From NCBI GenBank assembly GCA_039096225.1, contig JBBPEB010000007.1, positions 1,240,001 through 1,304,000 of the forward strand: DNA of 64,000 bases, in the 5' to 3' direction. This document shows, piece after piece, positions 14,401 through 53,662 of the stretch. Origin of the DNA: Blastocystis sp. Blastoise. Lineage: Eukaryota; Protista; Bigyra: Opalinata. The translations under genes and the position numbers were made by a program. Position 1 is the stretch's first letter. Each line of letters opens with the position of its first letter. The notes beneath the pieces were generated by a model, which saw only the letters and a list, made by a program, of their open reading frames with translations, was not told where the DNA came from and searched no databases.

Positions 14401-15733
14401 ATTATTAAGAGTACTTTTGTATTAATAATTCAAACTAAAATAAGTATAATAAAAGAAAAATTATAATATTTATCAAATAATATCAAGATATGATTACTAT
14501 TTATATAATTAAACATTTATTAATTGAGAAAAGCTGTATAATAAAATTTCTAAAATATTTATATAATAGTATATATAAAAGGAAAGGATAAAATATAAAA
14601 AAACAAATAGATATCAAAATTATAATATTTTAAAAATAAAACAAAACAATATATGAAAAGAATAAAAAAGAATATATAATATTTTTTTAGACAAGAGAAT
14701 AAGCTATTTCTCACAATAATAATTATATAGACTAATTCAAATAAAACATAAATATTTAAAGGTAGGGTATAAGTGATAATAATATGTTTTAAAAGAAAAA
14801 GTATTTTATAATCATATTGATATTATTTAAAATACTAAATATTTATAAAACTAAATGAATTGATAAAATACATAGAAAGTTATAAATGAAATAACAAAGA
14901 AAAGTGAATTAATATTGAAAACTAAAAACTAAATAGAAATAGAAATAGAAATAGAAATAGAAATAGAAATAGAAATAGAAATAGAAATAGAAATAGAAAT
15001 AGAAATAGAAATAAGATCAAAAATAAAACACAAGAGTTAATTAATTATCATTGATAAACAATAAATATATATAGTCAATAATAAAAATGGCTAAAAAGAA
15101 TATTAAAAAAAAAAGGAAATAATACTCAAGAACATATAGAATGTTAAGTAAGAATTATCAATATGTATGAATTAAATTATTTAAAATACTAAATTGAAAA
15201 TTAAGATTAGAAGATAACAATTAAAAGCAATTGAAATAATATTTTATAAAATATGAAATAGTTTTAATCCTAAAAAAAAATAAAAACAGAAATGAATAAC
15301 AAAAACATAAGAATAAATATTCATTTTTTAAAATTCAATGTAAGATATAACAATTGAGAGATAATAATTATCTAAACTCAAGCGTAGGCTGGCGTAGCCA
15401 GTCGTGAAACGCTTGTATGTATTTAAAAATGTTAAAGTCTTTTAGAGTTTTTTTAAAATGACTAATTTGTTTTATAAACGATATTTTATATCAATAATAA
15501 AAGTTTTCAAAGTACTAAATCTATTTACTTATGAAATGTAGTGTATTCTTTGATTAATATTTTAGTTTTTAGTTTTTATTTAATGAAATAGTCATTAATG
15601 TTATTATTAAATTTTAATTTATTATGAACTATTAATTTAAAATAATGAAAAGATATTTTTTTATAAAACTATTTTTTTTTTATTTTTATCTAGATTCAAG
15701 CGTAGGCTGGCGTAGCCAGTCGTGAAACGCTTG
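11441..15733 (+). mobile_element. Nested pair of non-autonomous Helitron-like elements (family A): outer mini-element 11441-11488 + 15416-15733, inner ~3.9 kb element 11489-15415
   Basis: Duplicated 48-bp 5' end (TTATATATATTAATTTAGCAGCC..) and duplicated 3' end (GGCTGGCGTAGCCAGTC hairpin + GTGAAACGCTTG ending 15415 and 15733). Each junction is A|T with no TSD. The body from ~12550 is homologous to 45100-45459 + 48218-50900. Confidence 0.75.
14933..15013 (+). repeat. (ATAGAA)n microsatellite within family A element
   Basis: ~13 hexamer units here versus roughly 40+ in the copies at ~40040-40320 and ~50225-50505. Confidence 0.9.
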
Positions 15734-17022: not shown

Positions 17023-17714
17023 ATTCTTCCGTTCTTCGAACTGCAGAAGGGGGTATGCAAACCCCGCATAGAGTCTGCGCGACGCGCGCAGCCATAAGCG
17101 GGGAAGTCATCCCCCCTTTTTGTTCTCGACGGAAGAATTAATAACATTTCTGAAGTAAAATAACCATGGGAGTGTAGGGTAGTGTGTGTGTATTTTTATT
17201 TTTCCCCATGTTTATTTATTTTTAATTTATTTGTGTTCCGATTCCAACGTGAAACGTAAAGTGATCAAGGAGAAACTCATAGTAATCATAAAAGAAATAA
17301 AATACACAGTCCAACCCTCCCCTTTACAGGGAATATTCATGGAAAATGACTCCATCGTTGGTAAAGTGAGTAAAATAATCACGGGAATACAGAAAGAAAT
17401 ACGAAAAGAAGCACAGAATGTGCTAAATAAACACACACCCCGACCCTCCCTTTATATAGAGAAAAGATGAAATGGATGGTTCTATCTAAAAAGAAATAAT
17501 AAGAATAATCACGGGAATATATAAAAATAAAAATGTATGTATAGTGATCAATAAATAATATAAAAAGTCATGATAATCATAAAAAAATTTATATAAAAAG
17601 AGTAAAGTGATCAAGGTATGTATTTATAGTGGGTGAAAGAAAAGCTGGTGGTGGTGTGGTCTTGTAAAAAGATGTACCCACCACCACGATTATAACGAGA
17701 GACTTTTGGAAACA
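17023..17714 (+). repeat. Left terminal inverted repeat of the viral element
   Basis: Reverse complement of 52973-53662 with only a few substitutions/indels; starts ATTCTTCCGTTCTTCGAACTGCAG. Confidence 0.95.
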
Positions 17715-17742
17715 TGAGCGACCGATATGGAAAAATATAAAT

Positions 17743-18068: not shown

Positions 18069-19559
18069 CTAATGTTTTCTACGTTTATTTCTTAATTTTT
18101 TATTTTTTGAAATACGTCTTTTTCTACGTAATCCATTACCTTCTTCGAGATCATAAAATACCTCACCATCATCTTCATCAAATGATTGAAATTCATCATC
18201 TTCTTTTTTATTTCTTTTATTGTTATTTACAAGAGTGACATTTTCTACTGGATTAGGAATAGGGGCTACAGGTGTAATATTTGAAGTGAATTTATTCGTG
18301 ACTGCTTGAGACATTGGAACAGTATCAGGTAAAGGAACAGTAGGATCATTTATAAGAGGAATTAAATTTGGAGGATTTGAATCTTCAATAGTAATATTAT
18401 GAATATTTTCTTGTGTTAGAGTATCAGGAGTAGATGAAGAAGTTGGTATAACATTATTATTTGCTTCTATTGGATTTTCTGTTTGTGGTATTTCTTCATC
18501 TGGATTCTTACCATACCACCAATTTGAAAAACTATTAAACGCGTTCTTTGTACCGCTAATAACAGAGTTTGCAACATTCTTAACACCATTAACAATAGGT
18601 GTTCCTACATTTGTTGCAGTATTAACAACTTTATTAACAAATGTAGGGTTTTCTGCATATGGAATATAATTATTATGAAATGTTTTTGCTTGATCTTCTA
18701 AAGATTTACTTTTGTTAAGTCTTTGTTCTTTAGTATCATTGCCTGACATATGAGCAAATCTGAAATAGTTTTCAGCTAATATTTTATTTTTTTTCTTAGC
18801 TTCATTATCATCAGTTAATTTCCAATTATCATATAAATTATTTCTATCACTTACAAGTTTTCCTTTAATATCATTGAATCCTTCTTTTGGATCAACATTA
18901 ATATCTCTCCACCAATTCTTGAGATCTTTGAATTTATTTGCACCATAATCAACAGCATTACTTATTCCATGAGTGATGTTATTAATACCTCCAGTTAATT
19001 TATCAGACACATTGTATACATCACTTACAGTGTGATAAATATTAGAAAATAAATTACCACCTCTAGAATATAAGTAACCATCACGATCTCTTTTAGTAAA
19101 ATCAATAGCACTATCAATTGTACGAGGATTTAATAATCTAGAATATTTAGAATAATCAGACATATGATTTTGTTTCATATAAGGTAAGACATAATCATGA
19201 GCATAAATAAGTTTTCTTGTAAAGTTCTTTGGAATTCTACCATCAGGTAATAGCCCAGATCCTTCATCTATTGGTTCACTTTCTTCTGATTCTTCTAATG
19301 AATTTTGTATAACATCTTGTCTGGTTTCTGACAAATATGAATAGAATGGATTTGACGTTGCTCTATTAACCATATTACTTTCAATTTTTTTAACAGCATA
19401 TAATGAATTTGGAGCAATAGAATAATTAATTGGATGACGTTCTTCCCCATCAGGAATAGATCCTGGAACAATATAATTTCGATATTCATGACCAGTAGCA
19501 CGATGATTTACGCCTACTAATCCTTTATTTGAAACATTTAAACGAGCACTTTGTATCAT
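18069..19559 (-). CDS. Viral hypothetical protein (496 aa), possible virion core/membrane protein
   Basis: Intronless ORF; EGSGLL, RGGNL and EGNGL motifs; basic C-terminal tail after the last GxG; amphipathic ..NWW segments. Confidence 0.7.
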   Translation of the reverse strand: MIQSARLNVSNKGLVGVNHRATGHEYRNYIVPGSIPDGEERHPINYSIAPNSLYAVKKIESNMVNRATSNPFYSYLSETRQDVIQNSLEESEESEPIDEGSGLLPDGRIPKNFTRKLIYAHDYVLPYMKQNHMSDYSKYSRLLNPRTIDSAIDFTKRDRDGYLYSRGGNLFSNIYHTVSDVYNVSDKLTGGINNITHGISNAVDYGANKFKDLKNWWRDINVDPKEGFNDIKGKLVSDRNNLYDNWKLTDDNEAKKKNKILAENYFRFAHMSGNDTKEQRLNKSKSLEDQAKTFHNNYIPYAENPTFVNKVVNTATNVGTPIVNGVKNVANSVISGTKNAFNSFSNWWYGKNPDEEIPQTENPIEANNNVIPTSSSTPDTLTQENIHNITIEDSNPPNLIPLINDPTVPLPDTVPMSQAVTNKFTSNITPVAPIPNPVENVTLVNNNKRNKKEDDEFQSFDEDDGEVFYDLEEGNGLRRKRRISKNKKLRNKRRKH

Positions 19560-20938: not shown

Positions 20939-21976
20939 TTAATTTAAATGGAATTTTTTTAAGAAGAATTGAACAAGATTAATAATTAGATTAGTAGTAG
21001 TATCAAAGGATGTAGAGTTGACAAGAGCACCACCACAACGTTCAGCATTCTCTTTTGTAACACCACTTCCACTAGGATTTTTAAAGTAGTTATCAGCAGT
21101 TTCTTTACGTTTCTTATCATCATCGGTAGTAATCATATTATAAGCGAAATCAATAGGGATACCAAGAGAAGGATAATAGTATTTTAATGCATTCACTACA
21201 ATAGGAACAATCGTTTTAATAGTTTTAATAGCAGTATTCGCAATAATAGAATGCTTTTGTTTTGGATCCATAGGATATTCTTTATCGATAACGACATTAA
21301 CAATATCACGTACAGACACATGCTCATCATTTTTAGGTAATCGTTCTTTAATATCTTGTAATTTCTTCTTATTAGACTTTACATTACTAGAACGAATAGC
21401 CTTCTTAGCAATAATTTTTATTTGAGGAGTTACAAATTTACTTGTTTTCTTTTCTTTTTCTCGGTGACTCCCATGTTCTTTACGATGTTTCTGATGCCTT
21501 CTATGTATACCTTGACCAAATATATCATCATAATTTTCATCTTCAAGATTTGCATTATTATAATCTTTATCATCATCAGCCATCATTTTTCTTGTTATTC
21601 TCTTTGGTTGATAAGTATCATCATCGTTATATAATTCATCATCTCTATTAGCATCTTCAATATGTTCTTCAAATTGTCTTTTCTTTTCTTCTTTTGCTTT
21701 TTCTTGACGTTTTTGTTCTTTACGTTTCTGATAATAATTATATCCAGCAAATGCTCCTAATGTACCTAAAATAGGTAATGCAGTATAGACACCATTTTTA
21801 AAATCAGCCCAATCAGCATCTTTAGCTTGTTGTCTAACAATTTCTTCAAAACCAGTTCCTCCATATCTTACATAACGTTTATGATAAAGATCACGTCTAT
21901 TTGATTTTGGTGGTGATCCTCCAAATAATCGTGGATCACAATTTTGTTTTAAATATCTTTTTGTAATTGAACTCAT
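20939..21976 (-). CDS. Viral hypothetical protein (345 aa) with a hydrophobic segment and GxG motifs
   Basis: ALPILGTLGAFAGYNYY hydrophobic helix; YGGTGF, FGQGI, SGSGV and CGGAL motifs. Confidence 0.7.
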   Translation of the reverse strand: MSSITKRYLKQNCDPRLFGGSPPKSNRRDLYHKRYVRYGGTGFEEIVRQQAKDADWADFKNGVYTALPILGTLGAFAGYNYYQKRKEQKRQEKAKEEKKRQFEEHIEDANRDDELYNDDDTYQPKRITRKMMADDDKDYNNANLEDENYDDIFGQGIHRRHQKHRKEHGSHREKEKKTSKFVTPQIKIIAKKAIRSSNVKSNKKKLQDIKERLPKNDEHVSVRDIVNVVIDKEYPMDPKQKHSIIANTAIKTIKTIVPIVVNALKYYYPSLGIPIDFAYNMITTDDDKKRKETADNYFKNPSGSGVTKENAERCGGALVNSTSFDTTTNLIINLVQFFLKKFHLN

Positions 21977-23903: not shown

Positions 23904-25127
23904 TTAATTGGTTGCACCATCTCTAACAAATTTAACAAATATAAAATGAGCATATAAAGTATAAGTACCACTAGTAATATTTGCACCATTATATTCAGTT
24001 AATAAGGAGATATTAACTTCACAACCACTACGAGTATTGACATCAACAACACTTGAAATAGGGAATATATAAATAGGTTGTTCATACCATTTCTCACCAT
24101 TCAAAGGAGATTGAGGATGACTATTACATCTCCAAGTATTATAAAGCATAGCATTAGGAATAATTTGTGATGGATTCGTTGTTTTATATGTAGTAGGGAA
24201 ATCCGTCTTTGGTAAGATATTTTGACCACCAATTTGGAATTGACACATCTTCAATAATTCAGTCTTAATAGGAATCATACTCTTCTCTTGAGTTGTAAAA
24301 TATAACATACAGTAATCAGGTACGAAAACAACACTTCTATTGGATAAGAATTGTTGTGGAGTTGGTTTACCTGCTGTTGTGAATGTTTGTGAATAAACAG
24401 GTGTAGTAAATGCAGATATTTGACAATTATTAGGAATACATTTAATCAAAGCACGTGGATCATTACCAAAATTAATATCATAGATTTGTTGAAGATGAAT
24501 ATAAACACGATCAAATGTTAATGCAGTGATTTTAGTGGTTCCAGTAAATAGATTCTTTAAATAATTTGTAACGAATTGCATCTTCAAAGATTTTACTTTA
24601 ATAGCACAATCAAATGTACCAAGACCAGTAATAAGAGATAAAGGAATAATAACTTGAGCTTTAGTAGAACTTTGCATTCCAGAAATACTGCTTAATGTTG
24701 TATTATATAAGCATTCAGTCATACTATACATAGATTTATCAATTTCATCTTTACTTAATTCTTTAATAGTAACAAATTTTCTTGCTTTACTGGATTCAAT
24801 AGAAGATTCAGAATAATTAATAAGAATATCTTGACCCGTAGGAGATACAAACGTAAGATCTGTAGTAATTTTATCAATAATACTATAGATATTAGAATGT
24901 TGTACAACAGAACTAGTTGTAGCTGCATTTGTTGTAATATTGAAATTCAGTTCTAAGAATGAATTACTGAAATCAATAAAAGGACTATCCACTGAATTAT
25001 ATAAGAATTCAAATGGATAAGGTTGATTTAATAAATCTTGACTTGTAGAAACTAGAATAGGAATTTGTACAGGTTTAATAGTTTGATTTGCCTTTGAAGG
25101 TAAGAATTGTCTTGGGAATCCTTCCAT
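23904..25127 (-). CDS. Major capsid protein-like (double jelly-roll), paralog 1
   Basis: 407 aa, beta-rich; FEF..FIDFSNSFLELNFNI, NIYSIIDKI and IIPLSLITGL resemble the Polinton/PLV MCP N-terminal pattern. Confidence 0.75.
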   Translation of the reverse strand: MEGFPRQFLPSKANQTIKPVQIPILVSTSQDLLNQPYPFEFLYNSVDSPFIDFSNSFLELNFNITTNAATTSSVVQHSNIYSIIDKITTDLTFVSPTGQDILINYSESSIESSKARKFVTIKELSKDEIDKSMYSMTECLYNTTLSSISGMQSSTKAQVIIPLSLITGLGTFDCAIKVKSLKMQFVTNYLKNLFTGTTKITALTFDRVYIHLQQIYDINFGNDPRALIKCIPNNCQISAFTTPVYSQTFTTAGKPTPQQFLSNRSVVFVPDYCMLYFTTQEKSMIPIKTELLKMCQFQIGGQNILPKTDFPTTYKTTNPSQIIPNAMLYNTWRCNSHPQSPLNGEKWYEQPIYIFPISSVVDVNTRSGCEVNISLLTEYNGANITSGTYTLYAHFIFVKFVRDGATN

Positions 25128-25303: not shown

Positions 25304-26776
25304 TTAAATATCACGTACACTACGTACAGCAATCATATGTAATGTATAAGGATGCTTCTCATTTAGTTCAGTATTAATATGTTTATAAATACCAGCATGA
25401 GAAGCAACGGCATAAGAAGCACCAGTGTCAGGTGTCCATATTTTAGTAGTTTCATTATATGTACATGTATATCCATCAGGAACAGTAGATGAATCAGCAT
25501 GACCATATTCAATATCATGGACATCTAGATTACAATCAAAATTCATTTCTATACCACTATCTGATTGGATATTCATTAATGCTTTAGTTGGAATAATATA
25601 AATAGGATGTTTAATCCATTCATCATATTTAAGAATAGTTTCAGGATTTGAATTATCAGCCCATAAACAATATAGATTTTTATTAGGACAAGATAAACTA
25701 GCAGTTTCTTCATTATTGAAGACATGACCTTTAGTAGTAAGATTATGATAATACATTTGAGTAGGGAATTCAGTTTGAGGGAACATTTGAACATCACCAA
25801 TCAAACAACTTTGATATTTAGGCCATACAGATGGACTAGCTACATTACTAATAGTTGTTGAACTATAACCATTTGTAAACCAGTATAATATATATTCAGG
25901 TATAAATGGTAAAGCTCTATTGATATTGAAATGATCACTAGTTATTCTTGTATTTTGATAATCGACTTGAATACATGTAGGTATAGTTTTATATAATTCA
26001 TTCGTTTGGAATTGAATATCTTTATAAGTCATTAAATTCATAGTAGCTGATTCCAATTCAAATGTCTTAAACCATTTTTCATCAGTTAGATGTAACCATT
26101 GTGTTGATAATTTAGCACCACCATTCTTGAAATAAATACTCATATTATTATCAATTAAGGATTCAATTGTACTCGTTCTAAATAGCATATTGAAATGTTT
26201 AGTTAATATTAAAGAATCTCCATCAACACCTAAACCACTAATGAGATATAAAGGAATAGCAATATGAATAGATTGTTTTGGATGTGCACGTATATAACGA
26301 ATAGAATTCAATTCATAAGTATCTGCAGATAAATCTTCACCATACATAGATTTTTCTAAATCATTCTTACTGATATCTTTTAATAAAATCATCTTACGAC
26401 CACGTGAAGCATGTGTACAGTTTTCTTCATATTTCAAAGCACGATCAGATCCATCAGGTAAAGTATAAACCATTTCAACATCAGTGGAATCAATAATAGA
26501 ATAAATATTAGCTTTCTGAACTAATTGATCCAAGAAATATTGACATAATTGATCATAGGTGAAACTAACAGAAGTACCTGTTTCATCTAAATAAACAGAA
26601 ACTGGTCCAGCTTTATCTGTTACAGTTGCCTTGACAGTAAGATCCAAATATGATTGATTGAAATTGATATAAGTATTATCCACATTAGTCCAATGATATT
26701 GAAAGATATAAGGACTTGATAGAATATCAGTATCACTTTGAATAGGAATATTATCTTTAATTCTTAAGATTCTCAT
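25304..26776 (-). CDS. Major capsid protein-like, paralog 2
   Basis: Collinear similarity to 23904-25127: YINFNQSYLDL, NIYSIID, DLEKSMY, IPLYLISGLG, FIPEY, FPQTEFPT, PIYIIP, YTLH. Confidence 0.7.
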   Translation of the reverse strand: MRILRIKDNIPIQSDTDILSSPYIFQYHWTNVDNTYINFNQSYLDLTVKATVTDKAGPVSVYLDETGTSVSFTYDQLCQYFLDQLVQKANIYSIIDSTDVEMVYTLPDGSDRALKYEENCTHASRGRKMILLKDISKNDLEKSMYGEDLSADTYELNSIRYIRAHPKQSIHIAIPLYLISGLGVDGDSLILTKHFNMLFRTSTIESLIDNNMSIYFKNGGAKLSTQWLHLTDEKWFKTFELESATMNLMTYKDIQFQTNELYKTIPTCIQVDYQNTRITSDHFNINRALPFIPEYILYWFTNGYSSTTISNVASPSVWPKYQSCLIGDVQMFPQTEFPTQMYYHNLTTKGHVFNNEETASLSCPNKNLYCLWADNSNPETILKYDEWIKHPIYIIPTKALMNIQSDSGIEMNFDCNLDVHDIEYGHADSSTVPDGYTCTYNETTKIWTPDTGASYAVASHAGIYKHINTELNEKHPYTLHMIAVRSVRDI

Positions 26777-37551: not shown

Positions 37552-39180
37552 ATGCAAAGTTGTATATTAGGAATGCCAAGTCCTGGTACTTTTGGTATGA
37601 ATTTAATTTCAACTGGAAAAGAATATAGGCGATATAATACACAACCATTACATAAAATGGATCAATATAATCCAATATTTCATGAAATAGGTCCAAATTC
37701 ATCTATGCCTGTGTCTACTTTAGAAAGTAAAGAAATACATGATGGTAAAGAAGATGATTATGTAGATCGTTCTAAAACATTTGGTAAAGATGCTGTTCCA
37801 CAAGGAAATGGTGCTTTAATTCGTGCTAGAGCAGCAGGTAAAGGTGTAATGAAAGCAGCTGGTCCAGAAGAAGATAAAATAGATGGTGAAGATCGTCAAT
37901 ATAAAGTATTAAATCCTTGTAAACCAAGACGTAAATCTGGTAGAGGAATTATTCCAAATAAATCAGAAATCAATAAATTAGAGAATAATCAAGGTTCTGG
38001 TATTGGTGATGCAATTAAAAATAAAGTAAAAGATATGTATCAACGAAATGTATTAGATATAAGAGATGCTATTGTAGATAAAAAAGCTAATAGAAAAGCT
38101 CGTGATGCATTAGCTATTTTAGCTCAATATGTTGGTGATGGTCATCATGATCTTGATGATGAATTCAAAAGATTCTATGAACATAAAATTAAACGTGGTG
38201 GAAAGATTCCTATATCTGTTGCTTCAGCAATTATGAATGCAATTAAAAATAAGAAAATGATTAAGAATCCAAAATTAAGAAGAATGTTAAGACCTTCAAT
38301 TATACCAAAATATATAGATTTAGATTCAGCTCAAAGTGGTGATGGTATATTAAGAGTTAAAAGAGGTGGTGGATTCTGGAGTGGAGTAATGAATTATGCA
38401 CCAGCTCTATTAGGTGTAGTTGATAAAGGTATGGATTCTTTTGCTAAAGGTAGAAAAGCTTATTATGATACACATTTGGCACAACAGTCAAGTGAATTAA
38501 ATGATATGGAATTTGAAATGGAAAAATTAAAACGTCAACAAGCATTAAATGAAATGAAAAAACAAATAGGTTCAGGAAATACTATAAATAAGATGTTTGA
38601 AGGATATTATGATGTAGCTGATGAAATGCAAGATGCTCTTGATGAAGATGATAGATTACATCCACAACCCGTTGTTCAACCTCCACCACCTCCACAACAA
38701 CAAGTTGTTAGACCTCCTCAACCTCAACCTCCTCAACCTTATAAGCCAATGTCTCGTGATGAACAAAGTTATTATTATAAGATTTATGGTTTCCCTCAAA
38801 ATGATAAGGAGAAAGTCGATAGAAAATGGAAAGAAGATGAAAGGGATAAACGAATAGCTGCAAGAAGAGCTAAACGTAGAGGTTATGGTGGTCGAGTTAA
38901 ATTAAGTAAAGCAGAATTCTTAGAACGAATGAGAAGAGGAAAAGAAGCTAAAAAGAAAAGAGGTGGTGATTTACCTCCATTGGTAACAGCTTATACAGAT
39001 TTTGTAATACCTGCACAAGTAGAACAAAGGAAACGTAAAGTAGCTAAAAATGATTTAAAACAATTACAAACAATAAAACAGAAAATGGATAATAATGAAA
39101 TATTAGATAGAGGTGAGCAAATGTTTTGGAAAGAAAAGAAGTATATGTTATCAAAAAACTCAGGGGAGGGGATCTGGTAA
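37552..39180 (+). CDS. Putative virion core polyprotein with many GxG/GG cleavage-like motifs
   Basis: QGNGA, AGKGV, SGRGI, QGSGI, RGGKI, SGDGI, RGGGF, IGSGN, YGGRV, RGGDL; basic segments, an amphipathic FWSGVMNYAPALLGVV helix and a Pro-rich tract. Confidence 0.7.
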   Translation: MQSCILGMPSPGTFGMNLISTGKEYRRYNTQPLHKMDQYNPIFHEIGPNSSMPVSTLESKEIHDGKEDDYVDRSKTFGKDAVPQGNGALIRARAAGKGVMKAAGPEEDKIDGEDRQYKVLNPCKPRRKSGRGIIPNKSEINKLENNQGSGIGDAIKNKVKDMYQRNVLDIRDAIVDKKANRKARDALAILAQYVGDGHHDLDDEFKRFYEHKIKRGGKIPISVASAIMNAIKNKKMIKNPKLRRMLRPSIIPKYIDLDSAQSGDGILRVKRGGGFWSGVMNYAPALLGVVDKGMDSFAKGRKAYYDTHLAQQSSELNDMEFEMEKLKRQQALNEMKKQIGSGNTINKMFEGYYDVADEMQDALDEDDRLHPQPVVQPPPPPQQQVVRPPQPQPPQPYKPMSRDEQSYYYKIYGFPQNDKEKVDRKWKEDERDKRIAARRAKRRGYGGRVKLSKAEFLERMRRGKEAKKKRGGDLPPLVTAYTDFVIPAQVEQRKRKVAKNDLKQLQTIKQKMDNNEILDRGEQMFWKEKKYMLSKNSGEGIW

Positions 39181-39272
39181 AGAGTAAAGATGAAAAACTT
39201 ATTCAAAATTCAATGAATTGTGATAATCCTATTATATCTGATAAAACTCGTCATGTTACTCCTAGATCCCCT
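39153..39272 (+). other. Predicted -1 programmed ribosomal frameshift signal
   Basis: A_AAA_AAC at 39153-39159 in frame 0, a 7-nt spacer, then stem AGGGGATCTGG..GAGTAA..ATGA pairing with TCAT.TTACTC.CTAGATCCCCT (39251-39272). Confidence 0.7.
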
Positions 39273-39644
39273 GATAATTTCAAACAAACTCTATCTCAAT
39301 ATTGTAATATACCAAATTCTCTAATATCTCAATTATATAATTATGCTTATTTAAATAAACCTACCTCATCTGTTGCTTGTGATCGTGCTGAAAATGTTAT
39401 GAAACAATTAAATAAAACAAATTCTCAATCTTATAATTATTATAATAGTTATGATGATTTTGAACAAAATATAGATCAAGATCAAACTAAATTTAATATG
39501 ATCTTCCATGAAAGTCCTAGTGATCCTTATAATGGTCATTTTGAAGCTGTTATTTATAATGGTAATAAAAATATAGAACACTATTCATCATTAGGAAATA
39601 AACCTACTTTTTCAAAATCATTTATTCAAAATCATAATATTCAA

Positions 39645-42600
39645 CAAGCGTTTCACGACTGGCTACGCCAGCCTACGCTTGAGTTTTGATAGTTGTCATC
39701 TCTTAATTATTATATTTTATGTTGATTTTTTTTTAAATATTATGTTTATTTTTATGTTTTTGTTATTCATTTCTATTTTTTTATTTTTAGGATGAAGACT
39801 ATTTCATATTTTATAAATTATTATTTCAATTGTTTTAGTTGTTATCTTCTATTGTTTAGTTATTAGTTTAGTATATTCTAAATAATTTAATTCACAATTT
39901 ATTCATAATTCCTATTTAACATTTTATATTACATTTTTTGAGTATTATTTCCTTTTTTATTTAGTATTATTTTAGCTATTTTTATTATTGATTATATATA
40001 TTTATTGTTTATTAATGATAATTGATTAGCTCTTGTGTTTTAGTTTTGATCTTATTCATATTTCTATTTCTATTTCTATTTCTATTTCTATTTCTATTTC
40101 TATTTCTATTTCTATTTCTATTTCTATTTCTATTTCTATTTCTATTTCTATTTCTATTTCTATTTCTATTTCTATTTCTATTTCTATTTCTATTTCTATT
40201 TCTATTTCTATTTCTATTTCTATTTCTATTTCTATTTCTATTTCTATTTCTATTTCTATTTCTATTTCTATTTCTATTTCTATTTCTATTTCTATTTCTA
40301 TTTCTATTTCTATTTCTATTTAGTTTTTAGTTTTCAATATTAATTCACTTTTCTTTGTTATTTCATTTATAACTTTCTATGTATTTTATCAATTCATTTA
40401 GTTTTATAAATATTTAGTATTTTAAATAATATCAATATGATTATAAAATACTTTTTCTTTTAAAACATATTATTATCACTTATACCCTACCTTTAAATAT
40501 TTATGTTTTATTTGAATTAGTCTATATAATTATTATTGTGAGAAATAGCTTATTCTCTTGTCTAAAAAAATATTATATATTCTTTTTTATTCTTTTCATA
40601 TATTGTTTTGTTTTATTTTTAAAATATTATAATTTTGATATCTATTTGTTTTTTTATATTTTATCCTTTCCTTTTATATATACTATTATATAAATATTTT
40701 AGAAATTTTATTATACAGCTTTTCTCAATTAATAAATGTTTAATTATATAAATAGTAATCATATCTTGATATTATTTGATAAATATTATAATTTTTCTTT
40801 TATTATACTTATTTTAGTTTGAATTATTAATACAAAAGTACTCTTAATAATTAAAAGATATTTATTACTTTATATAATAAACAAAAAAATTAGAGTCTTA
40901 TTTTAATATTTATCATTAATAGAATCTATTCGTTTTAAGTAAAAGAGAATATTTATAGAGAAATTATCTTTTCATTATTTAAAATTAATTAATTCAAGTT
41001 TAATTCAATTTTTATAGTGTTATCAAAATCATTTCATTAAATGAAACGAAAAACTAAATATAAACCAAAAATTACATTCCATTTCATAACTAAATAGATT
41101 TAAATACTTTGGAAACTTTACCTATTATACATAAAATATAGTTTATAAAACAAATAAGTTATTTTTAAAAAACTCTAAAAGATTTTAACGTTTTTAAATA
41201 CACATATCCACTTTTATTAAAACGAATTTTATATTAATATACATATATATTTAATTTATTATTTTAATTTGTAAAAAATAACTTGAATCTCTTTTGTTTT
41301 AAGTCACAATTACAAAGAATGAGTTCTTTTGAAAGACAAAAAACATTCTTTAAACAATAATAATTTTGTATTTAGTGACATAAAAACGTATTATACAGTT
41401 TTAGAAACAATTAAAATCTTTTTACCCATTTTAACACTCCTATCAAACAGTCAACCATGTTTAATTAAACTAATTTTTAATATTTTATATTCTATAATAA
41501 GTCTATTTATTATTATTATAAAAAGTGACTTGAATCTCTTGACTTAACTATTGTAATTCTAAAAAAATAATTTTTTGAACAACTTAAAATGTTTATTTAT
41601 TGTAGATTTTAATATAAAATACTCTAAAAACACTCAATATATACTTATTGTAACCATTTTAGAAAAATAGACTCATTTTAACATTTTGGTCAAACACACA
41701 ACCACCTTTATTTCAAACAATTCTTTTATTATTATAAACATTAAACACTCTAATACTCATTTTTATAAAAAGTGTATTGAATCTCTTCACTTAAGACAGT
41801 CAAACAGACAATTCAAAATTATTTTATCCTTTAAACTCATTATAAAGTGATAATATTTATAGAATTGCTTTGATATGTGGTTTAGGACATATTTAACTAC
41901 TTTTTTCAAAATTATGAGTCAACATGTGCATATACTCATACACTCGTCTAACTTATTTTTGACTAATTTTTTGAGAAATGCAATACATATAATGTCTAGT
42001 TTTCAAATATGTAAAAATTAATTGTCAAATATGAATTTGATTTGTCAACTTTCGGAAAATTTTTAGAAAAATGATTTTTCAATTTTCAGTTTTTTAACAT
42101 GTTATACTATTGACTCTACTGAACTCATTTCTTAATTAATTTTAAATGTTAAAATTTATATTATTAATATGTGTTATTCTCTATATTTATTTGCTAAAAT
42201 TATATTAAATAATTAAATATTGACTGAGAAATTAATGTTATAAAGTATACCCTTTTTTTCAAAAATTAATTTTTTTATGTTTTGCATATATAATTTTTTA
42301 TCTCAAAAGTTATTTAATATTTTGATAATATTTTTATAAATATATAAACTATAGGTTGTCTAGTTTATATATAAGTTTTATTTATTTTTTAAAAATTAAT
42401 ATTGATGGAGAAATTGTCAAAATAAACTATAGTATCCAAAATGCTTTCTTCTTTTTAAACGACTTATTTCACTAATTAAAGATAATTAAAAGCATATTTA
42501 TTTATTTAAAGCATATTTATGATATTTACAACTTAGTAAGACTGATAACTTACTTTTTAGAACAAACATTGTCTGTATCAGTTCAACATGTTGTCCTAAC

Positions 42601-43867
42601 TTTTTCAAATAAATCATATTCAGTGTCCATGAATGATTCTAAACACTAATTAAAACGTTTTAAGAGTTTATTGAGTTAACATTGTCTGGTGATCTGTTGT
42701 CACAGTCTTTTAAAAACAAAATAAAATTATAAAATATGTTTATTTTGATATATAGTTTTTAAATATAAAGTCTAATGTCAAATAAAATTGTTAATGATGA
42801 AAATATAAACAAAAAACAAATGAAAACTTTTTAAGAAAATTTTTTGAAAGTCATTTTTTATTGAGTTCAACTATTGACTCTTGTCACCTGAGTTTTCAAT
42901 TAATTAAAAAAATGAAAAATATGTATCTGCTATGACATGTCTAGTTTCTAAATATGTTCTAACTTTTTTATTTTATTAAGAATTGATTGAGAAATCACAA
43001 TAACAAACTATACCCTTTTTTGAAAATTTTCATTTTTATGTTTTTCATATAAATGAATGTTTCTCAGTCAATATTAAATATTTAGATAAAATAAAAAATA
43101 TGTATCTGCAATAGCTTATCTTAATTATAATTATACTTTTATTTTTAAAAAATACCCAAAACTCAAGGAGAAAGACGAATAACAAACTATACTATCAAAA
43201 CATCAAAATTTCTATTATCAAATATTTTCTTATTAAAACATATTATTAAAATATAAAACATATTTATGACGGATACAGAGTTAAATAAATACATTAAAGC
43301 TCAAATAAATTTATAAAGAAGGAATGTGTCGGATATCAGTTTGACTTTTGTTGTTATTTAAAGGAATTATTGTGGTTTCAGAGTAGTTGAGGTCAGTATC
43401 ATAACAACTGAAACCATTTTAGAGTTTATAGTTAGTGATGTGTGTATTGATATGTTGTCAAGTTGTAAATATAAACAAATTTACCCGTCAAAACTATTTA
43501 TAAGACTAACCCGTCAATAAAAGTCAATTTTATAAAAATAAATATAGAGTATGTGAAGTGATATAGGAAAAATAAGAAAACAATAAAAAATGAAAATGGA
43601 AAAATAAGTGTTTTTATAAAAATGAAAAATATTGGATAAAATAAAAATAATCCAATAATTTTGGTTAAAATTTTGTGCGAAAATGGTTTTTTGCGATTTT
43701 TAGCCAGAAATTTAGAGTTTTTGAAAAATTTCTTTAACAGTCATTTTCAGAATTGTGTTCCGGATTTTATGATGTTATTTTTATTTTATAAAAGTTAATA
43801 ACAAAGTCAAGAATAGTGAAAGTCTGTGAGACACCGTACGCTACATGAACTAAATTAAGGATATTAA
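39645..43867 (-). mobile_element. Non-autonomous Helitron-like element, family A, copy 2 (4223 bp)
   Basis: Minus strand 5'-TTAATATCCTTAATTTAG...hairpin GGCTGGCGTAGCCAGTC..CTTG-3'; inserted at A|T with no TSD; no long ORF. Confidence 0.8.
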
Positions 43868-43920
43868 TATAATCCTATTCAACACCAAAAAACTACAAGT
43901 AATGCAAATGGTTGCTTTTA

Positions 43921-46900
43921 TTAATATCCTTAATTTAGTTCATGTAGCGTACGGTGTCTCACAGACTTTCACTATTCTTGACTTTGTTATTAACTTTTAT
44001 AAAATAAAAATAACATCATAAAATCCGGAACACAATTCTGAAAATGACTGTTAAAGAAATTTTTCAAAAACTCTAAATTTCTGGCTAAAAATCGCAAAAA
44101 ACCATTTTCGCACAAAATTTTAACCAAAATTATTGGATTATTTTTATTTTATCCAATATTTTTCATTTTTATAAAAACACTTATTTTTCCATTTTCATTT
44201 TTTATTGTTTTCTTATTTTTCCTATATCACTTCACATACTCTATATTTATTTTTATAAAATTGACTTTTATTGACGGGTTAGTCTTATAAATAGTTTTGA
44301 CGGGTAAATTTGTTTATATTTACAACTTGACAACATATCAATACACACATCACTAACTATAAACTCTAAAATGGTTTCAGTTGTTATGATACTGACCTCA
44401 ACTACTCTGAAACCACAATAATTCCTTTAAATAACAACAAAAGTCAAACTGATATCCGACACATTCCTTCTTTATAAATTTATTTGAGCTTTAATGTATT
44501 TATTTAACTCTGTATCCGTCATAAATATGTTTTATATTTTAATAATATGTTTTAATAAGAAAATATTTGATAATAGAAATTTTGATGTTTTGATAGTATA
44601 GTTTGTTATTCGTCTTTCTCCTTGAGTTTTGGGTATTTTTTAAAAATAAAAGTATAATTATAATTAAGATAAGCTATTGCAGATACATATTTTTTATTTT
44701 ATCTAAATATTTAATATTGACTGAGAAACATTCATTTATATGAAAAACATAAAAATGAAAATTTTCAAAAAAGGGTATAGTTTGTTATTGTGATTTCTCA
44801 ATCAATTCTTAATAAAATAAAAAAGTTAGAACATATTTAGAAACTAGACATGTCATAGCAGATACATATTTTTCATTTTTTTAATTAATTGAAAACTCAG
44901 GTGACAAGAGTCAATAGTTGAACTCAATAAAAAATGACTTTCAAAAAATTTTCTTAAAAAGTTTTCATTTGTTTTTTGTTTATATTTTCATCATTAACAA
45001 TTTTATTTGACATTAGACTTTATATTTAAAAACTATATATCAAAATAAACATATTTTATAATTTTATTTTGTTTTTAAAAGACTGTGACAACAGATCACC
45101 AGACAATGTTAACTCAATAAACTCTTAAAACGTTTTAATTAGTGTTTAGAATCATTCATGGACACTGAATATGATTTATTTGAAAAAGTTAGGACAACAT
45201 GTTGAACTGATACAGACAATGTTTGTTCTAAAAAGTAAGTTATCAGTCTTACTAAGTTGTAAATATCATAAATATGCTTTAAATAAATAAATATGCTTTT
45301 AATTATCTTTAATTAGTGAAATAAGTCGTTTAAAAAGAAGAAAGCATTTTGGATACTATAGTTTATTTTGACAATTTCTCCATCAATATTAATTTTTAAA
45401 AAATAAATAAAACTTATATATAAACTAGACAACCTATAGTTTATATATTTATAAAAATACTAGGGTCACGCCGCAGGTCCGGGGCCTAACGGCACCGGAC
45501 CGCGGCTGCATAAAATAATAACAGTTTGGCTTTTATTTTCTTTTTTTCATTATTATATATTATCTATTATATATTATTATTTATTATCTATTATATATTA
45601 TATATTATATATTATATAATATATAATATATTATATATTATATATTATATATTATATATTATATATTATATATTATATATTATATATTATATATTATATA
45701 TTACTTTAATAACACTTCTTATACTCTATATGGAGAGTTACAATCATTTATTGATTGTAATCAGGTTCAATTCCTGATATAAGAATTAAATAAATTCTTT
45801 AAATGATATCAAAAAAACTAAAAACAATACTTGAAAGAAAATTAAAAAACTATTTTGAATCATTATACATATTATTTATTATTTTTAAAATATATTTTGT
45901 ATTTATTAATAATTAAACAACTGTTTTAAACATTTTGTGAGTTTTTAAAGTCAATAACTTTAGAAATGAGTCACAATGTGAAGAACTCTGAAGTATTTTT
46001 AATTCATAAAAGTTATTTAAATAAACGTAATATAATGATTTAAACTCATTTTCATACTTTTTAAAAGAATTAGAAAGCTTTAATCATAACAAAGTCAGCA
46101 TTCATTCTAACTTTGACTAATAAAACATGGTTTAAAAAGTTAATATTTCTTCAGTTGTCTCAAATACTTATTTTAATCATAAATGACTCGAAAAAGTGAC
46201 TTTTAAATAGACTTTACCCATTCAAGATCCACTGTATCAAAACAGTTTCCGTCAGTCTTTTGATATAGTATAGAGTTTATCATACTATTTATTAAATAAA
46301 AGTAAATGTTTTGAATCTCTTTCTTAAAGACCCTTTTTGACACATTATGAAAAGTTGACACACTTAAATTCATTTTTATAAGCTAATATTTACACACTAT
46401 ACTTAATAATACCATAGCTACACATTGGTCATCACTTTAAGACATTTCGTAAACCTTTTGCATTTGCTCATTTACTTTGACCAAAATATTTTCGTCCCTC
46501 CTTTTGATATAATATAGACTGTGTGGTCTAGTTATATGAAAGTGAGATGGAATTTTGAATCTCGTCCTCTAAGTCAAACATTTTCACATTTTTAAAAATT
46601 AAGACCCTTAGAGTTGATTTTTGAAGTTAATTTTTCTACAGTGTTCCAAAAACACGATTTTGCACAAACTGAAGTAAAAATATTTTTTCAATAACTCTCA
46701 CAACCCTTTACACATGCAGTCTCTAAAAATAGATTTTGCTATATTTTTGATATGTTGTAGAGTGTCTCTTAGTGTATACTGAACAATATCTCGTTTCTTA
46801 AAACTCTCATTTTATGACTCTCTTTAAACATATTTTTACTAATTGAAAGACTTAAACACATTTTTAAAAGCTAATATTCACATAGTAGACTTTATATGAC

Positions 46901-49900
46901 TCTATAATCACATTAGTCAACACTTTAGACTTATTAAGAAGACTTTACCATTTGGTCATACACTTCGACCAAAATATTTTTGTCCCTCCTTTTAACATAA
47001 TATAGATCATACACTCTAGTTTAATGAATAAAAGCTCTTATTTTGAATCTCGTCCTCTAAGTCACTCATTTTTACATTTTTTTAAATTTAAGACCCTTAG
47101 AGTTGACTTTTTGACTCAATTTTTCTACAGTGCACGAAATTCACGATTTTATATAAACTGAAGTAAAAATAAATTTTAAATAATAGTCACAACCCTTCAC
47201 ACATCCACTCTCTAAAAATTATTTTCTTTGTACTTTTGATATGTTGTAGAGCTACTACAGCTGTACACTAATTAATATCTCTAAATTTTTTATTCAAAGT
47301 CTAAGACTATGTTTTACACATTCTTTGAAATTTGACAACCTTAAACTATTTATTTAAAGCTCTTATTCATAGAATATACTTAATATATGATTCGAAACAC
47401 ATATATAAACCCTTTTACTTTTTAAGACACATTTTGTCATTTGGTCATACACTTTGACCTTCATAATTTTGACTCTTCTTTTGACATAGAATAGAGTATT
47501 ATCTTTAGTTTACTAAATAAAAGTCATTATATTGAATCTCTCACTCTAAGACCACTTAATTCACATTTTTCAAAATTGTGACACTCAAACTCATTATTTT
47601 AAAACTTTGTTTTAACTATAGTAGTTTGAGGACCTATTGATTACTATGATACAATATTAGTCCATTATAAGAAGATCGAAGAAAAATATCGATCACTCAA
47701 AAATCGTCCTCAGGAGCTCAAAATTGGCACACCTAGGTTTTTTGACCTCCTGAATCAGAATATCATGTCAAAATAAGAATCTAAATTTGACCGTTAAGGC
47801 CTCACGTGTTCAATATGAAAAAGTATTAAAAAATAGATAAATATAAAGAATAAACACGGATAACGTATATTGTGGGATTGAGAAAAAATCAAGTTTACCC
47901 CATGTTTATTTTTCAATTGTCTGGTCAACAATTTTTATCGGGATGATCCCAAAGAGCCAATCAAAAACGACTCAAAAATCATGTTTTCTGTTCTTTTATT
48001 AATAACTTTTTAAATATAAATAATATCGCTTAACCAAATATATGGTGCACAACTACATGTTATATCCTATTGAACTGTGTTTCAACGAAAAGTTAACTCC
48101 CCGTAAGTTTAGAGGAGTTGTGGGTACAAACTTGAGTATATAGTAGCCAATCAAATGAATTTTCCAAAAACTGACCAATGGGAATTTTTTTGCCTATTCT
48201 CATATATATAGTAATGATTATCAAAATATTAAATAACTTTTGAGATAAAAAATTATATATGCAAAACATAAAAAAATTAATTTTTGAAAAAAGGGTATAC
48301 TTTATAACATTAATTTCTCAGTCAATATTTAATTATTTAATATAATTTTAGCAAATAAATATAGAGAATAACACATATTAATAATATAAATTTTAACATT
48401 TAAAATTAATTAAGAAATGAGTTCAGTAGAGTCAATAGTATAACATGTTAAAAAACTGAAAATTGAAAAATCATTTTTCTAAAAATTTTCCGAAAGTTGA
48501 CAAATCAAATTCATATTTGACAATTAATTTTTACATATTTGAAAACTAGACATTATATGTATTGCATTTCTCAAAAAATTAGTCAAAAATAAGTTAGACG
48601 AGTGTATGAGTATATGCACATGTTGACTCATAATTTTGAAAAAAGTAGTTAAATATGTCCTAAACCACATATCAAAGCAATTCTATAAATATTATCACTT
48701 TATAATGAGTTTAAAGGATAAAATAATTTTGAATTGTCTGTTTGACTGTCTTAAGTGAAGAGATTCAATACACTTTTTATAAAAATGAGTATTAGAGTGT
48801 TTAATGTTTATAATAATAAAAGAATTGTTTGAAATAAAGGTGGTTGTGTGTTTGACCAAAATGTTAAAATGAGTCTATTTTTCTAAAATGGTTACAATAA
48901 GTATATATTGAGTGTTTTTAGAGTATTTTATATTAAAATCTACAATAAATAAACATTTTAAGTTGTTCAAAAAATTATTTTTTTAGAATTACAATAGTTA
49001 AGTCAAGAGATTCAAGTCACTTTTTATAATAATAATAAATAGACTTATTATAGAATATAAAATATTAAAAATTAGTTTAATTAAACATGGTTGACTGTTT
49101 GATAGGAGTGTTAAAATGGGTAAAAAGATTTTAATTGTTTCTAAAACTGTATAATACGTTTTTATGTCACTAAATACAAAATTATTATTGTTTAAAGAAT
49201 GTTTTTTGTCTTTCAAAAGAACTCATTCTTTGTAATTGTGACTTAAAACAAAAGAGATTCAAGTTATTTTTTACAAATTAAAATAATAAATTAAATATAT
49301 ATGTATATTAATATAAAATTCGTTTTAATAAAAGTGGATATGTGTATTTAAAAACGTTAAAATCTTTTAGAGTTTTTTAAAAATAACTTATTTGTTTTAT
49401 AAACTATATTTTATGTATAATAGGTAAAGTTTCCAAAGTATTTAAATCTATTTAGTTATGAAATGGAATGTAATTTTTGGTTTATATTTAGTTTTTCGTT
49501 TCATTTAATGAAATGATTTTGATAACACTATAAAAATTGAATTAAACTTGAATTAATTAATTTTAAATAATGAAAAGATAATTTCTCTATAAATATTCTC
49601 TTTTACTTAAAACGAATAGATTCTATTAATGATAAATATTAAAATAAGACTCTAATTTTTTTGTTTATTATATAAAGTAATAAATATCTTTTAATTATTA
49701 AGAGTACTTTTGTATTAATAATTCAAACTAAAATAAGTATAATAAAAGAAAAATTATAATATTTATCAAATAATATCAAGATATGATTACTATTTATATA
49801 ATTAAACATTTATTAATTGAGAAAAGCTGTATAATAAAATTTCTAAAATATTTATATAATAGTATATATAAAAGGAAAGGATAAAATATAAAAAAACAAA

Positions 49901-50900
49901 TAGATATCAAAATTATAATATTTTAAAAATAAAACAAAACAATATATGAAAAGAATAAAAAAGAATATATAATATTTTTTTAGACAAGAGAATAAGCTAT
50001 TTCTCACAATAATAATTATATAGACTAATTCAAATAAAACATAAATATTTAAAGGTAGGGTATAAGTGATAATAATATGTTTTAAAAGAAAAAGTATTTT
50101 ATAATCATATTGATATTATTTAAAATACTAAATATTTATAAAACTAAATGAATTGATAAAATACATAGAAAGTTATAAATGAAATAACAAAGAAAAGTGA
50201 ATTAATATTGAAAACTAAAAACTAAATAGAAATAGAAATAGAAATAGAAATAGAAATAGAAATAGAAATAGAAATAGAAATAGAAATAGAAATAGAAATA
50301 GAAATAGAAATAGAAATAGAAATAGAAATAGAAATAGAAATAGAAATAGAAATAGAAATAGAAATAGAAATAGAAATAGAAATAGAAATAGAAATAGAAA
50401 TAGAAATAGAAATAGAAATAGAAATAGAAATAGAAATAGAAATAGAAATAGAAATAGAAATAGAAATAGAAATAGAAATAGAAATATGAATAAGATCAAA
50501 ACTAAAACACAAGAGCTAATCAATTATCATTAATAAACAATAAATATATATAATCAATAATAAAAATAGCTAAAATAATACTAAATAAAAAAGGAAATAA
50601 TACTCAAAAAATGTAATATAAAATGTTAAATAGGAATTATGAATAAATTGTGAATTAAATTATTTAGAATATACTAAACTAATAACTAAACAATAGAAGA
50701 TAACAACTAAAACAATTGAAATAATAATTTATAAAATATGAAATAGTCTTCATCCTAAAAATAAAAAAATAGAAATGAATAACAAAAACATAAAAATAAA
50801 CATAATATTTAAAAAAAAATCAACATAAAATATAATAATTAAGAGATGACAACTATCAAAACTCAAGCGTAGGCTGGCGTAGCCAGTCGTGAAACGCTTG
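43921..50900 (+). mobile_element. Non-autonomous Helitron-like element, family A, copy 3 (contains a nested Helitron)
   Basis: Reverse complement of 39645-43867 (one homopolymer indel noticed) apart from the 45460-48217 insertion; A|T target. Confidence 0.8.
45460..48217 (-). mobile_element. Canonical non-autonomous Helitron (family B, 2758 bp)
   Basis: Minus strand begins TC (TCATTACTATATATATG) and ends CTAG; GC-rich subterminal hairpin CCGCaGGTCCGG..CCGGACCGCGG at 45471-45505; the empty site in the other palindrome arm (42328/42329) shows A|T insertion with no TSD. Confidence 0.92.
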
Positions 50901-51035
50901 TTATTCTTTACTTTATTTACTTTCTAATGGAAATCTTATGCCTTGTTAAAACATTCTAGAATATTCTAGAATCTTTAATTTATTATATTAATATTTTGTA
51001 TAATTAATTTGTTTTGTTTATTATTTAATACTATA

Positions 51036-51191
51036 ATGACAAAGAAACGATTTGGCAATTACTACTTAGATCGTAGTGCAGAAATTTTAGAGAATGTAAA
51101 TGAAATACTGTCAGTTATTGAAATTGTTCTTATTATTATATATATTTTACTTTACTTTTATATGTCCAAGAAACGTTCTAGAACATTCTAG
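51036..51191 (+). CDS. Small viral membrane protein candidate (51 aa)
   Basis: MTKKRFG.. with hydrophobic ILSVIEIVLIIIYILLYFY; 4-unit HSE upstream (50953-50972) and TTGTTTTGTT downstream. Confidence 0.45.
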   Translation: MTKKRFGNYYLDRSAEILENVNEILSVIEIVLIIIYILLYFYMSKKRSRTF

Positions 51192-51293
51192 AACATTCAT
51201 TTTGAACTGGCTCTATTTGTAGAATCTTTAATTTATTATATTAGTATTTTATATAATTAATTTGTTTTGTTTAATCATTGGTTAATTTAAATA

Positions 51294-52807: not shown

Positions 52808-52972
52808 ATTGATATACATGCCGCCACATAAAACCACTGGAACACAATTAGTTTCCCCAGTTTCCCTATTATAATTGTGTTTTTGTGTTCCAAAATCCCT
52901 CATTTTTACAATTTTAAGCAATTTGATTGGACAATTCACGATGACGCATCCTATTTCCATAACGGTTACCCT

Positions 52973-53662
52973 TGTTTCCAAAAGTCTCTCGTTATAATCG
53001 TGGTGGTGGGTACATCTTTTTACAAGACCACACCACCACCAGCTTTTCTTTCACCCACTATAAATACATACCTTGATCACTTTACTCTTTTTATATAAAT
53101 TTTTTTATGATTATCATGACTTTTTATATTATTTATTGATCACTATACATACATTTTTATTTTTATATATTCCCGTGATTATTTTTATTATTTCTTTTTA
53201 GATAGAACCATCCATTTCATCTTTTCTCTATATAAAGGGAGGGTCGGGGTGTGTGTTTATTTAGCACATTCTGTGCTTCTTTTCGTATTTCTTTCTGTAT
53301 TCCCGTGATTATTTTACTCACTTTACCAACGATGGAGTCATTTTCCATGAATATTCCCTGTAAAGGGGAGGGTTGGACTGTGTATTTTATTTCTTTTATG
53401 ATTACTATGAGTTTCTCCTTGATCACTTTACGTTTCACGTTGGAATCGGAACACAAATAAATTAAAAATAAATAAACATGGGAAAAATAAATACACACAC
53501 ACACTACCCTACACTCCCATGGTTATTTTACTTCAGAAATGTTATTAATTCTTCCGTCGAGAACAAAAAGGGGGATGTCTTCCCCGCTTATGGCTGCGCG
53601 CGTCGCGCAGACTCTATGCGGGGTTTGCATACCCCCTTCTGCAGTTCGAAGAACGGAAGAAT
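52973..53662 (-). repeat. Right terminal inverted repeat of the viral element
   Basis: Reverse complement of 17023-17714. Confidence 0.95.

Follow-up and report, generated by a model that had tools for sequence, protein, structure and literature searches.

A predicted -1 ribosomal frameshift linking a core-like protein to a protease in an endogenous Polinton-like virus of Blastocystis

How is a viral protease translated when its reading frame opens inside the end of the preceding gene, and in a different frame? The question is raised by a locus in the 64,000-nucleotide stretch of Blastocystis sp. Blastoise DNA analyzed here (the window), where a 542-aa ORF is overlapped in the -1 frame by an ORF for a cysteine protease. 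A preliminary description had proposed that the two are fused by a retrovirus-like -1 frameshift, and this reading is supported by chance statistics, by sister copies and by fused homologs.

The viral element and the core-protease junction

The junction lies within a viral element that is bounded by 711-nt terminal inverted repeats and measures approximately 25 kb without a foldback insertion, within the 15–40 kb of Polinton-like viruses with such repeats (Table 1). The element contains both a packaging ATPase and a replication module, as Polinton-like viruses do: a 345-aa P-loop ATPase of the packaging type (PHROG terminase match, E 1e-10) and a 1000-aa primase-helicase (E 2e-9). There is also a weak phage-integrase match of the tyrosine-recombinase type (E 0.08). 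Two paralogous capsid candidates of 407 and 490 aa, 28% identical to each other, are encoded on the minus strand (23904–25127 and 25304–26776), and neither gave a profile match to a double jelly-roll major capsid protein or penton. No PolB or rve integrase gene was detected in the element by Pfam and PHROG searches. The element is an endogenous Polinton-like virus whose named relatives belong to Blastocystis sp. Blastoise. The host genes around it include an Hsp20-like ORF and a PPR-like ORF, both named by sequence appearance.

The 542-aa ORF ends in the codons TCA AAA AAC TCA GGG GAG GGG ATC TGG TAA. P0047, P0048 and P0045 have N-terminal parts homologous to this ORF and run on into the protease; the 542-aa protein is likely a core or structural polyprotein. 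Pfam, PHROG and PDB sequence searches returned no named family for either the core-like protein or the protease. The open stretch of the -1 frame spans 39117–39689 and encodes KKLRGGDL at the junction. When the sequence was re-read, the terminal codons, the -1 overlap and the KKLRGGDL reading were all found as first described, and the overlap, the heptamer and the downstream fold are confirmed. Elsewhere in the element, a 496-aa ORF on the minus strand (18069–19559) has an N-terminal motif in common with the 542-aa protein, P0045 and P0048, and is likely a paralog of the core-like protein.

The motif TGTTT(T/A)GTT is found 3' of 16 of the 17 other viral gene ends, within 12–85 nt; the one further gene end without it is at 31645. 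The 20.5 kb of coding sequence contain no copy of it, and neither do the two divergent junctions. Because it follows gene ends, is never found in coding sequence and is missing from divergent junctions, the motif marks the ends of genes and not their starts, and a promoter function is ruled out by its absence from the divergent junctions. The core-protease junction has no copy of the motif and an AT content of at most 24 of 30, in agreement with the earlier remark that it lacks the AT-rich gap and the motif of other viral gene ends. The first viral copy downstream of the core start, TTGTTTTGTT, follows the remnant of the protease gene and is likely the shared 3' end of core and protease. From the pattern of motifs, the two genes are likely on one transcription unit.

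The viral gene-end motif resembles TGTTTGTT, which is given in the accessible part of PMC4159000 as a Blastocystis polyadenylation motif lying four nucleotides after poly(A) sites. In a tortoise-derived Blastocystis, no enrichment of the TGTTTGTT element was found behind host genes (PMC10690189, section 8), so the role of the viral motif at 3' ends is read from its position only. Within the intergenic regions of 18020–51724, TTGTTTTGTT follows nearly every viral gene, unlike what is reported for the host genes of the tortoise Blastocystis, and the virus may have retained a 3'-end signal that is ancestral or of foreign origin. At the ATPase gene, the gene-end motif (21986, minus strand) directly adjoins the ATG of the next ORF (20939–21976). 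A TTCTAGAA-rich unit is duplicated in the region 50950–51290, which has two gene-end motifs and the start of a short ORF near 51037. Repeats of TTCTAGAA also adjoin both terminal inverted repeats.

Table 1. Positions of the features discussed, numbered within the window
Feature	Position	Strand	Basis or remark
Left terminal inverted repeat	17023..17733	.	98.5% over 711 nt against right end
542-aa basic ORF, likely core/structural polyprotein ("gag-like"), several GG motifs	37552..39180	+	Homology to fused proteins
-1 ORF, N-terminal part of CE-clan (Ulp1/pS273R/adenain-like) cysteine protease with GHFE	39117..39642	+	Homologs, fold
Slippery heptamer A_AAA_AAC, 0-frame phase	39153..39159	+	Sole in-frame instance in virus
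-1 frame L-R-G-G-D-L, predicted self-release site	39159..39176	+	4 of 6 codons used at 1–2% elsewhere in virus
7-nt spacer, heptamer to stem	39160..39166	+	Fold position
Predicted stimulatory stem-loop, arms 39167–39193 and 39248–39272, 11+6+5 bp	39167..39272	+	Folding
First in-frame AUG of protease ORF	39213..39215	+	U at -3; Leu instead of Met in P0044
AT-rich foldback insertion, 11.26 kb, perfect long inverted arms	39643..50902	.	Interrupts protease
C-terminal protease remnant	50902..50949	+	About 19 codons missing between pieces, including conserved Gln and predicted catalytic Cys
TTGTTTTGTT gene-end motif after protease remnant	51009..51018	+	First viral one downstream of core start
Right terminal inverted repeat	52954..53662	.	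Pairs with left repeat

The slippery heptamer and the predicted hairpin

The heptamer A_AAA_AAC at 39153–39159 lies within the overlap in the 0-frame phase of an X_XXY_YYZ slippery site, and both its position and its phase agree with the preliminary description. It is the only in-frame copy in the 6980 codons of the 18 viral ORFs, in which in-frame XXXYYYZ heptamers total 23. Codon usage predicts 0.78 in-frame copies of A_AAA_AAC across the virus, and for the 21-codon overlap the expectation is approximately 0.07 XXXYYYZ heptamers and 0.002 copies of A_AAA_AAC. Among the 23 in-frame heptamers, the one at the junction has the strongest downstream fold (-31.2; the next is -23.8) and is the only one with a long -1 frame (178 aa, compared with at most 15 for the others).

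The fold of the junction RNA that had been proposed as a check was run, and a stable stem was found (MFE -31.2 kcal/mol, z -2.57) that was equaled in stability by 2 of 200 shuffled sequences. In the model the stem starts at 39167, which places it within the 5–9 nt downstream of the heptamer that is typical of -1 frameshift signals. The spacer of 7 nt and the helices of 11 and 6 bp stand as originally given; however, the last helix has 5 bp and not 4, and the 3' arm spans 39248–39272 and not 39251–39272. Pair probabilities are 0.81–1.00 for the first 17 bp and 0.67–0.74 for the last 5 bp. Of 2070 sense-strand coding windows of 110 nt (mean -12.8, sd 4.3), none folds more stably than the one at 39162, which ties for first place; windows starting at 39540–39700 were dropped from this ranking as insertion DNA. 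When codons were redrawn with the protease sequence kept, the observed hairpin energy was matched by none of 600 recodings with viral codon usage, by 4 of 600 with uniform usage and by 1 of 600 when the 5' arm was left unchanged. This arm is built from the rare codons CTC, AGG, GGG and CTG, each of which makes up 1–2% of its amino acid's codons elsewhere in the virus.

Conservation of the -1 frame extends upstream of the first in-frame AUG of the protease: of the 13 residues preceding AUG 39213, 5–8 are identical in five homologs, and a GG at the position of the predicted self-release site is also present before these residues in P0044, P0047 and P0043. Adenain and pS273R cleave by a GG-X rule, from which cleavage at LRGG/D by the protease is predicted.

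An alternative is that the protease starts alone, at AUG 39213 or CUG 39174, through a shorter co-terminal mRNA or reinitiation, with the overlap and hairpin serving some other function. The Met at 39213 is kept in four of the five homologs compared, the exception being the Leu of P0044. CTG 39174 has G at both -3 and +4. In the P0001 and P0002 clusters, an M aligned with this codon is the called start of 8 of 21 proteins, and the Met corresponding to AUG 39213 is that of 10 of 21. The aligned M would be explained by a TTG or GTG call but may also be a real AUG; in that case, the protease may have a separate start in the P0001/P0002 lineages. A shorter protease could also be active, because the match to the CE-clan fold begins approximately 60 residues into P0002. 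However, AUG 39213 has U at -3, where 15 of the 17 other viral ORFs have A, and an out-of-frame AUG that does have A at -3 lies ahead of it, at 39190. Both candidate starts fall inside the predicted hairpin (AUG 39213 within its loop), no AT-rich gap precedes them, and P0044 lacks the Met. A separate start also leaves the correctly spaced heptamer unexplained, and we consider it unlikely.

Fused relatives, sister copies and the interrupted protease

A profile search of 1.84 billion representatives returned four proteins. Two metagenomic proteins, P0043 (Logan) and its cluster member P0047 (ENA), have core homology and the protease in one ORF. The core homology is 38% over 110 aa in P0047 (E 6e-11) and has an E of 4e-6 in P0043; the protease identity is 52%. 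Both fused proteins are colinear with the predicted shift product, so that the long, conserved -1 frame and the meaningful fusion expected of a -1 frameshift are found in the protease frame and in these homologs. The preliminary description had taken in-frame fused homologs as a sign of an indel or sequencing error. Such fusions do exist, but 20 of 20 sister proteins keep the end next to the stop codon; the fusions of P0047 and P0043 indicate that the core-protease fusion is a natural product and are no proof of an indel in the copy in the window.

Core and protease are also found in one protein in the Blastoise gene models P0045, P0049 and P0050. P0044 and P0048 combine one and the same core with one and the same protease, but the point of joining differs between the two, and both also absorb the next gene. 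Judged from the protein models, these differing joins suggest a gene predictor bridging the frame break. Splicing could in principle join core to protease, for example from GTGAGC 39113 (phase 1) to the AG before 39169 or 39190 (phase 1). Such frame-restoring donor and acceptor pairs are present, and the NCBI models P0044 and P0048 have a spliced look, but their joins disagree and take in the next gene. In addition, each of the 21 core proteins of the family extends to the stop with no splice, the CAG before 39164 that makes the best acceptor is in phase 2 and gives no fusion, and the region is purine-rich. We therefore regard splicing as very unlikely.

The core proteins retrieved number 21, comprising 20 sisters and the protein of the window itself. 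The last 14 residues are common to all 21, and the K-N encoded by the heptamer is likewise kept at the protein level in all 21. Directly before this shared end, 12 of the 21 have a second tail allele that differs at 21 of 54 residues. The exact 542-aa sequence is present in one Blastocystis sp. Blastoise cluster, and residues 390–542 are 97% identical to an NCBI protein under the same name. Since all 20 sister proteins share the same last 14 residues, an indel or sequencing error at the junction is ruled out. The invariant tail could instead stem from a recombination breakpoint and not from selection.

At least 21 core gene copies (P0022–P0042) have mosaic middle and tail alleles, which suggest recombination among integrated viruses, and the protease is carried by at least three virus families under the Blastoise name. 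Two word-based searches with the core returned four Blastoise clusters only and missed P0047, P0045 and P0048. DNA of the relatives was not found in scans of viral contigs, metagenome contigs, GTDB genomes and phage records. A search of sequencing runs gave one partial match and no RNA run; the contigs of the matching run cover parts of the core and protease genes outside 38852–39232, and one contig piece matches up to 39644 and continues with 16 letters unlike the insertion.

It might also be that core and protease were ancestrally fused in frame and that a 1-nt indel separated them early in the spread of the family, the heptamer and hairpin being coincidental. In-frame fused relatives exist, and integrated copies can decay, as the one in the window did. 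However, the common end is found in 20 of 20 sisters drawn from two tail alleles, and the downstream protease shares 60% identity with distant homologs and has no stop codon ahead of the insertion. The joint chance of the heptamer and the best hairpin falling at the junction is well below 1%, and we regard such an early split as highly improbable.

The protease was described at first as adenain-like. In a structure model of the homolog P0002 (pLDDT 77.8), the top 29 VIA rows are all CE-clan or related papain-like folds. The best match is OtDUB (Z 9.0, rmsd 2.9, 120 aligned), and Z values are 7.7 for ASFV pS273R, 7.2 for adenain and 6.5 for poxvirus I7L; Foldseek matched Ulp1 with an E of 5e-4. 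A first structure model (pLDDT 58.8) had no match that reached E 0.001. The assignment thus stands at the level of the CE-clan fold but is not specific to adenain. The homologs carry GHFE..Q..NGC, in which the His, the oxyanion Gln and the catalytic Cys are present, whereas in the copy in the window the Gln-Cys stretch is missing at the insertion.

The foldback element has 2614 nt perfectly inverted and contains a 3.1-kb palindrome internally; all of its ORFs are shorter than 70 aa. Its GC-rich terminus recurs twice to the left of the virus (approximately 15380–15415, and 15698–15733), and the region from approximately 12600 to 15400 resembles its arm. It appears to belong to a family of large non-autonomous foldback transposons. 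The -1 ORF finishes with 16 codons (from approximately 39643) that belong to the end of the insertion and not to the protease, a point that the preliminary description had missed; a native protease ending in ..PTLEF is ruled out because this tail is insertion DNA. Because the insertion removed the Gln and the predicted catalytic Cys, the protease of the copy in the window is predicted to be inactive.

Proposed mechanism and known systems

We consider it probable, and hold with good confidence, that a programmed -1 slip yields a co-packaged core-protease fusion that is released at LRGG/D. The core-like and protease genes would share one mRNA, on which most ribosomes would stop at UAA 39178, and a minority would slip -1 in tandem at A_AAA_AAC before the hairpin and produce the fusion. 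Packaging alongside the core protein would bring the fusion into the virion in a constant, low proportion. As the virion matures, the protease would release itself at LRGG/D and go on to process the other GG sites, like retroviral gag-pro. In the copy in the window, the shift product would be without the catalytic Cys owing to the foldback insertion. It also seems fairly likely that the Blastocystis Polinton-like lineage reached the gag-pro design independently, with the two proteins fused in-frame or by a -1 shift, and with the shift setting the dose of protease in the virion.

Canonical -1 frameshifting with a heptamer and a structure is characteristic of RNA viruses, retroelements and phage tail genes, and MMTV uses A_AAA_AAC itself. 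The gag-pro genes of beta- and deltaretroviruses (MMTV, HTLV) resemble the Blastoise virus in having a structural polyprotein, a protease in the -1 frame, a heptamer of the highly shift-prone class and a downstream structure. However, the Blastoise virus has a dsDNA genome and a CE-clan cysteine protease, whereas the retroviral protease is aspartic. ASFV pS273R, poxvirus I7L and adenovirus adenain share the CE-clan fold with the Blastoise-type protease, whose putative substrate has GG motifs; these three are separate genes and are not frameshifted from the ORF of their substrate. LTR retrotransposons are similar to the Blastoise lineage in that the two modules of gag-pol are in-frame in some lineages and frameshifted in others. 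Unlike them, the Blastoise element is a DNA virus without reverse transcriptase that has a primase-helicase and a weak tyrosine-recombinase match. According to the accessible part of PMC5009743, gag-pol is at -1 in 28 of 51 animal LTR retrotransposons, and A_AAA_AAC is among the most shift-prone heptamers. The MMTV gag-pro structure described there is a kinked pseudoknot, whereas a long stem-loop is predicted in the Blastoise virus, for which only simple stems were modelled.

No core-protease frameshift was found in the literature searched, which reached few subscription papers. For -1 frameshifting in Polinton-like viruses or virophages, that literature gave only the preprint of Buck et al. 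(PMC11071296) on midsize eukaryotic dsDNA viruses, whose accessible text offers it as a hypothesis: slippery pentons and "Hexain" (hexon-adenain) fusions in adintoviruses, with -1 predictions from KnotInFrame and Hexain sequences in supplement file 2. Hexain, like the Blastoise fusion, joins a structural protein to an adenain-like protease in a frameshift context. However, Hexain has the major capsid protein as its partner and is, in the text available, briefly put forward as a hypothesis, whereas the Blastoise partner is a core-like protein of a protist virus with sister copies and fused homologs. The earlier statement that such a frameshift is undescribed for Polinton-like viruses thus holds for core and protease, but the hexon-adenain idea is related. 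The word "frameshift" is absent from the main text, so far as accessible, of two 2026 surveys of Polinton-like viruses (10.64898/2026.10.13.758929 and 10.64898/2026.06.19.733378) and of the egovirus preprint (10.1101/2024.03.23.586382).

The Blastocystis MELD virus (Starrett et al., PMC8502044) is likewise a midsize linear dsDNA virus associated with Blastocystis, and no description of a frameshift in it was found in the available part of that paper. The same part reports PolB and an rve integrase in the MELD virus, whereas neither was detected in the Blastoise element.

If real, the proposed shift would provide a clear example of canonical -1 frameshifting in the morphogenesis of a eukaryotic dsDNA virus. 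A fusion made in-frame by some relatives and through a shift by others would account for the way in which a maturation protease is packaged and dosed, and the reading would name a core protein for a viral group whose virion interiors are poorly known. The signal is a cassette of approximately 130 nt and is directly testable. Gene callers mis-split or falsely splice core-protease genes of this kind, and their models at such junctions should be read with caution.
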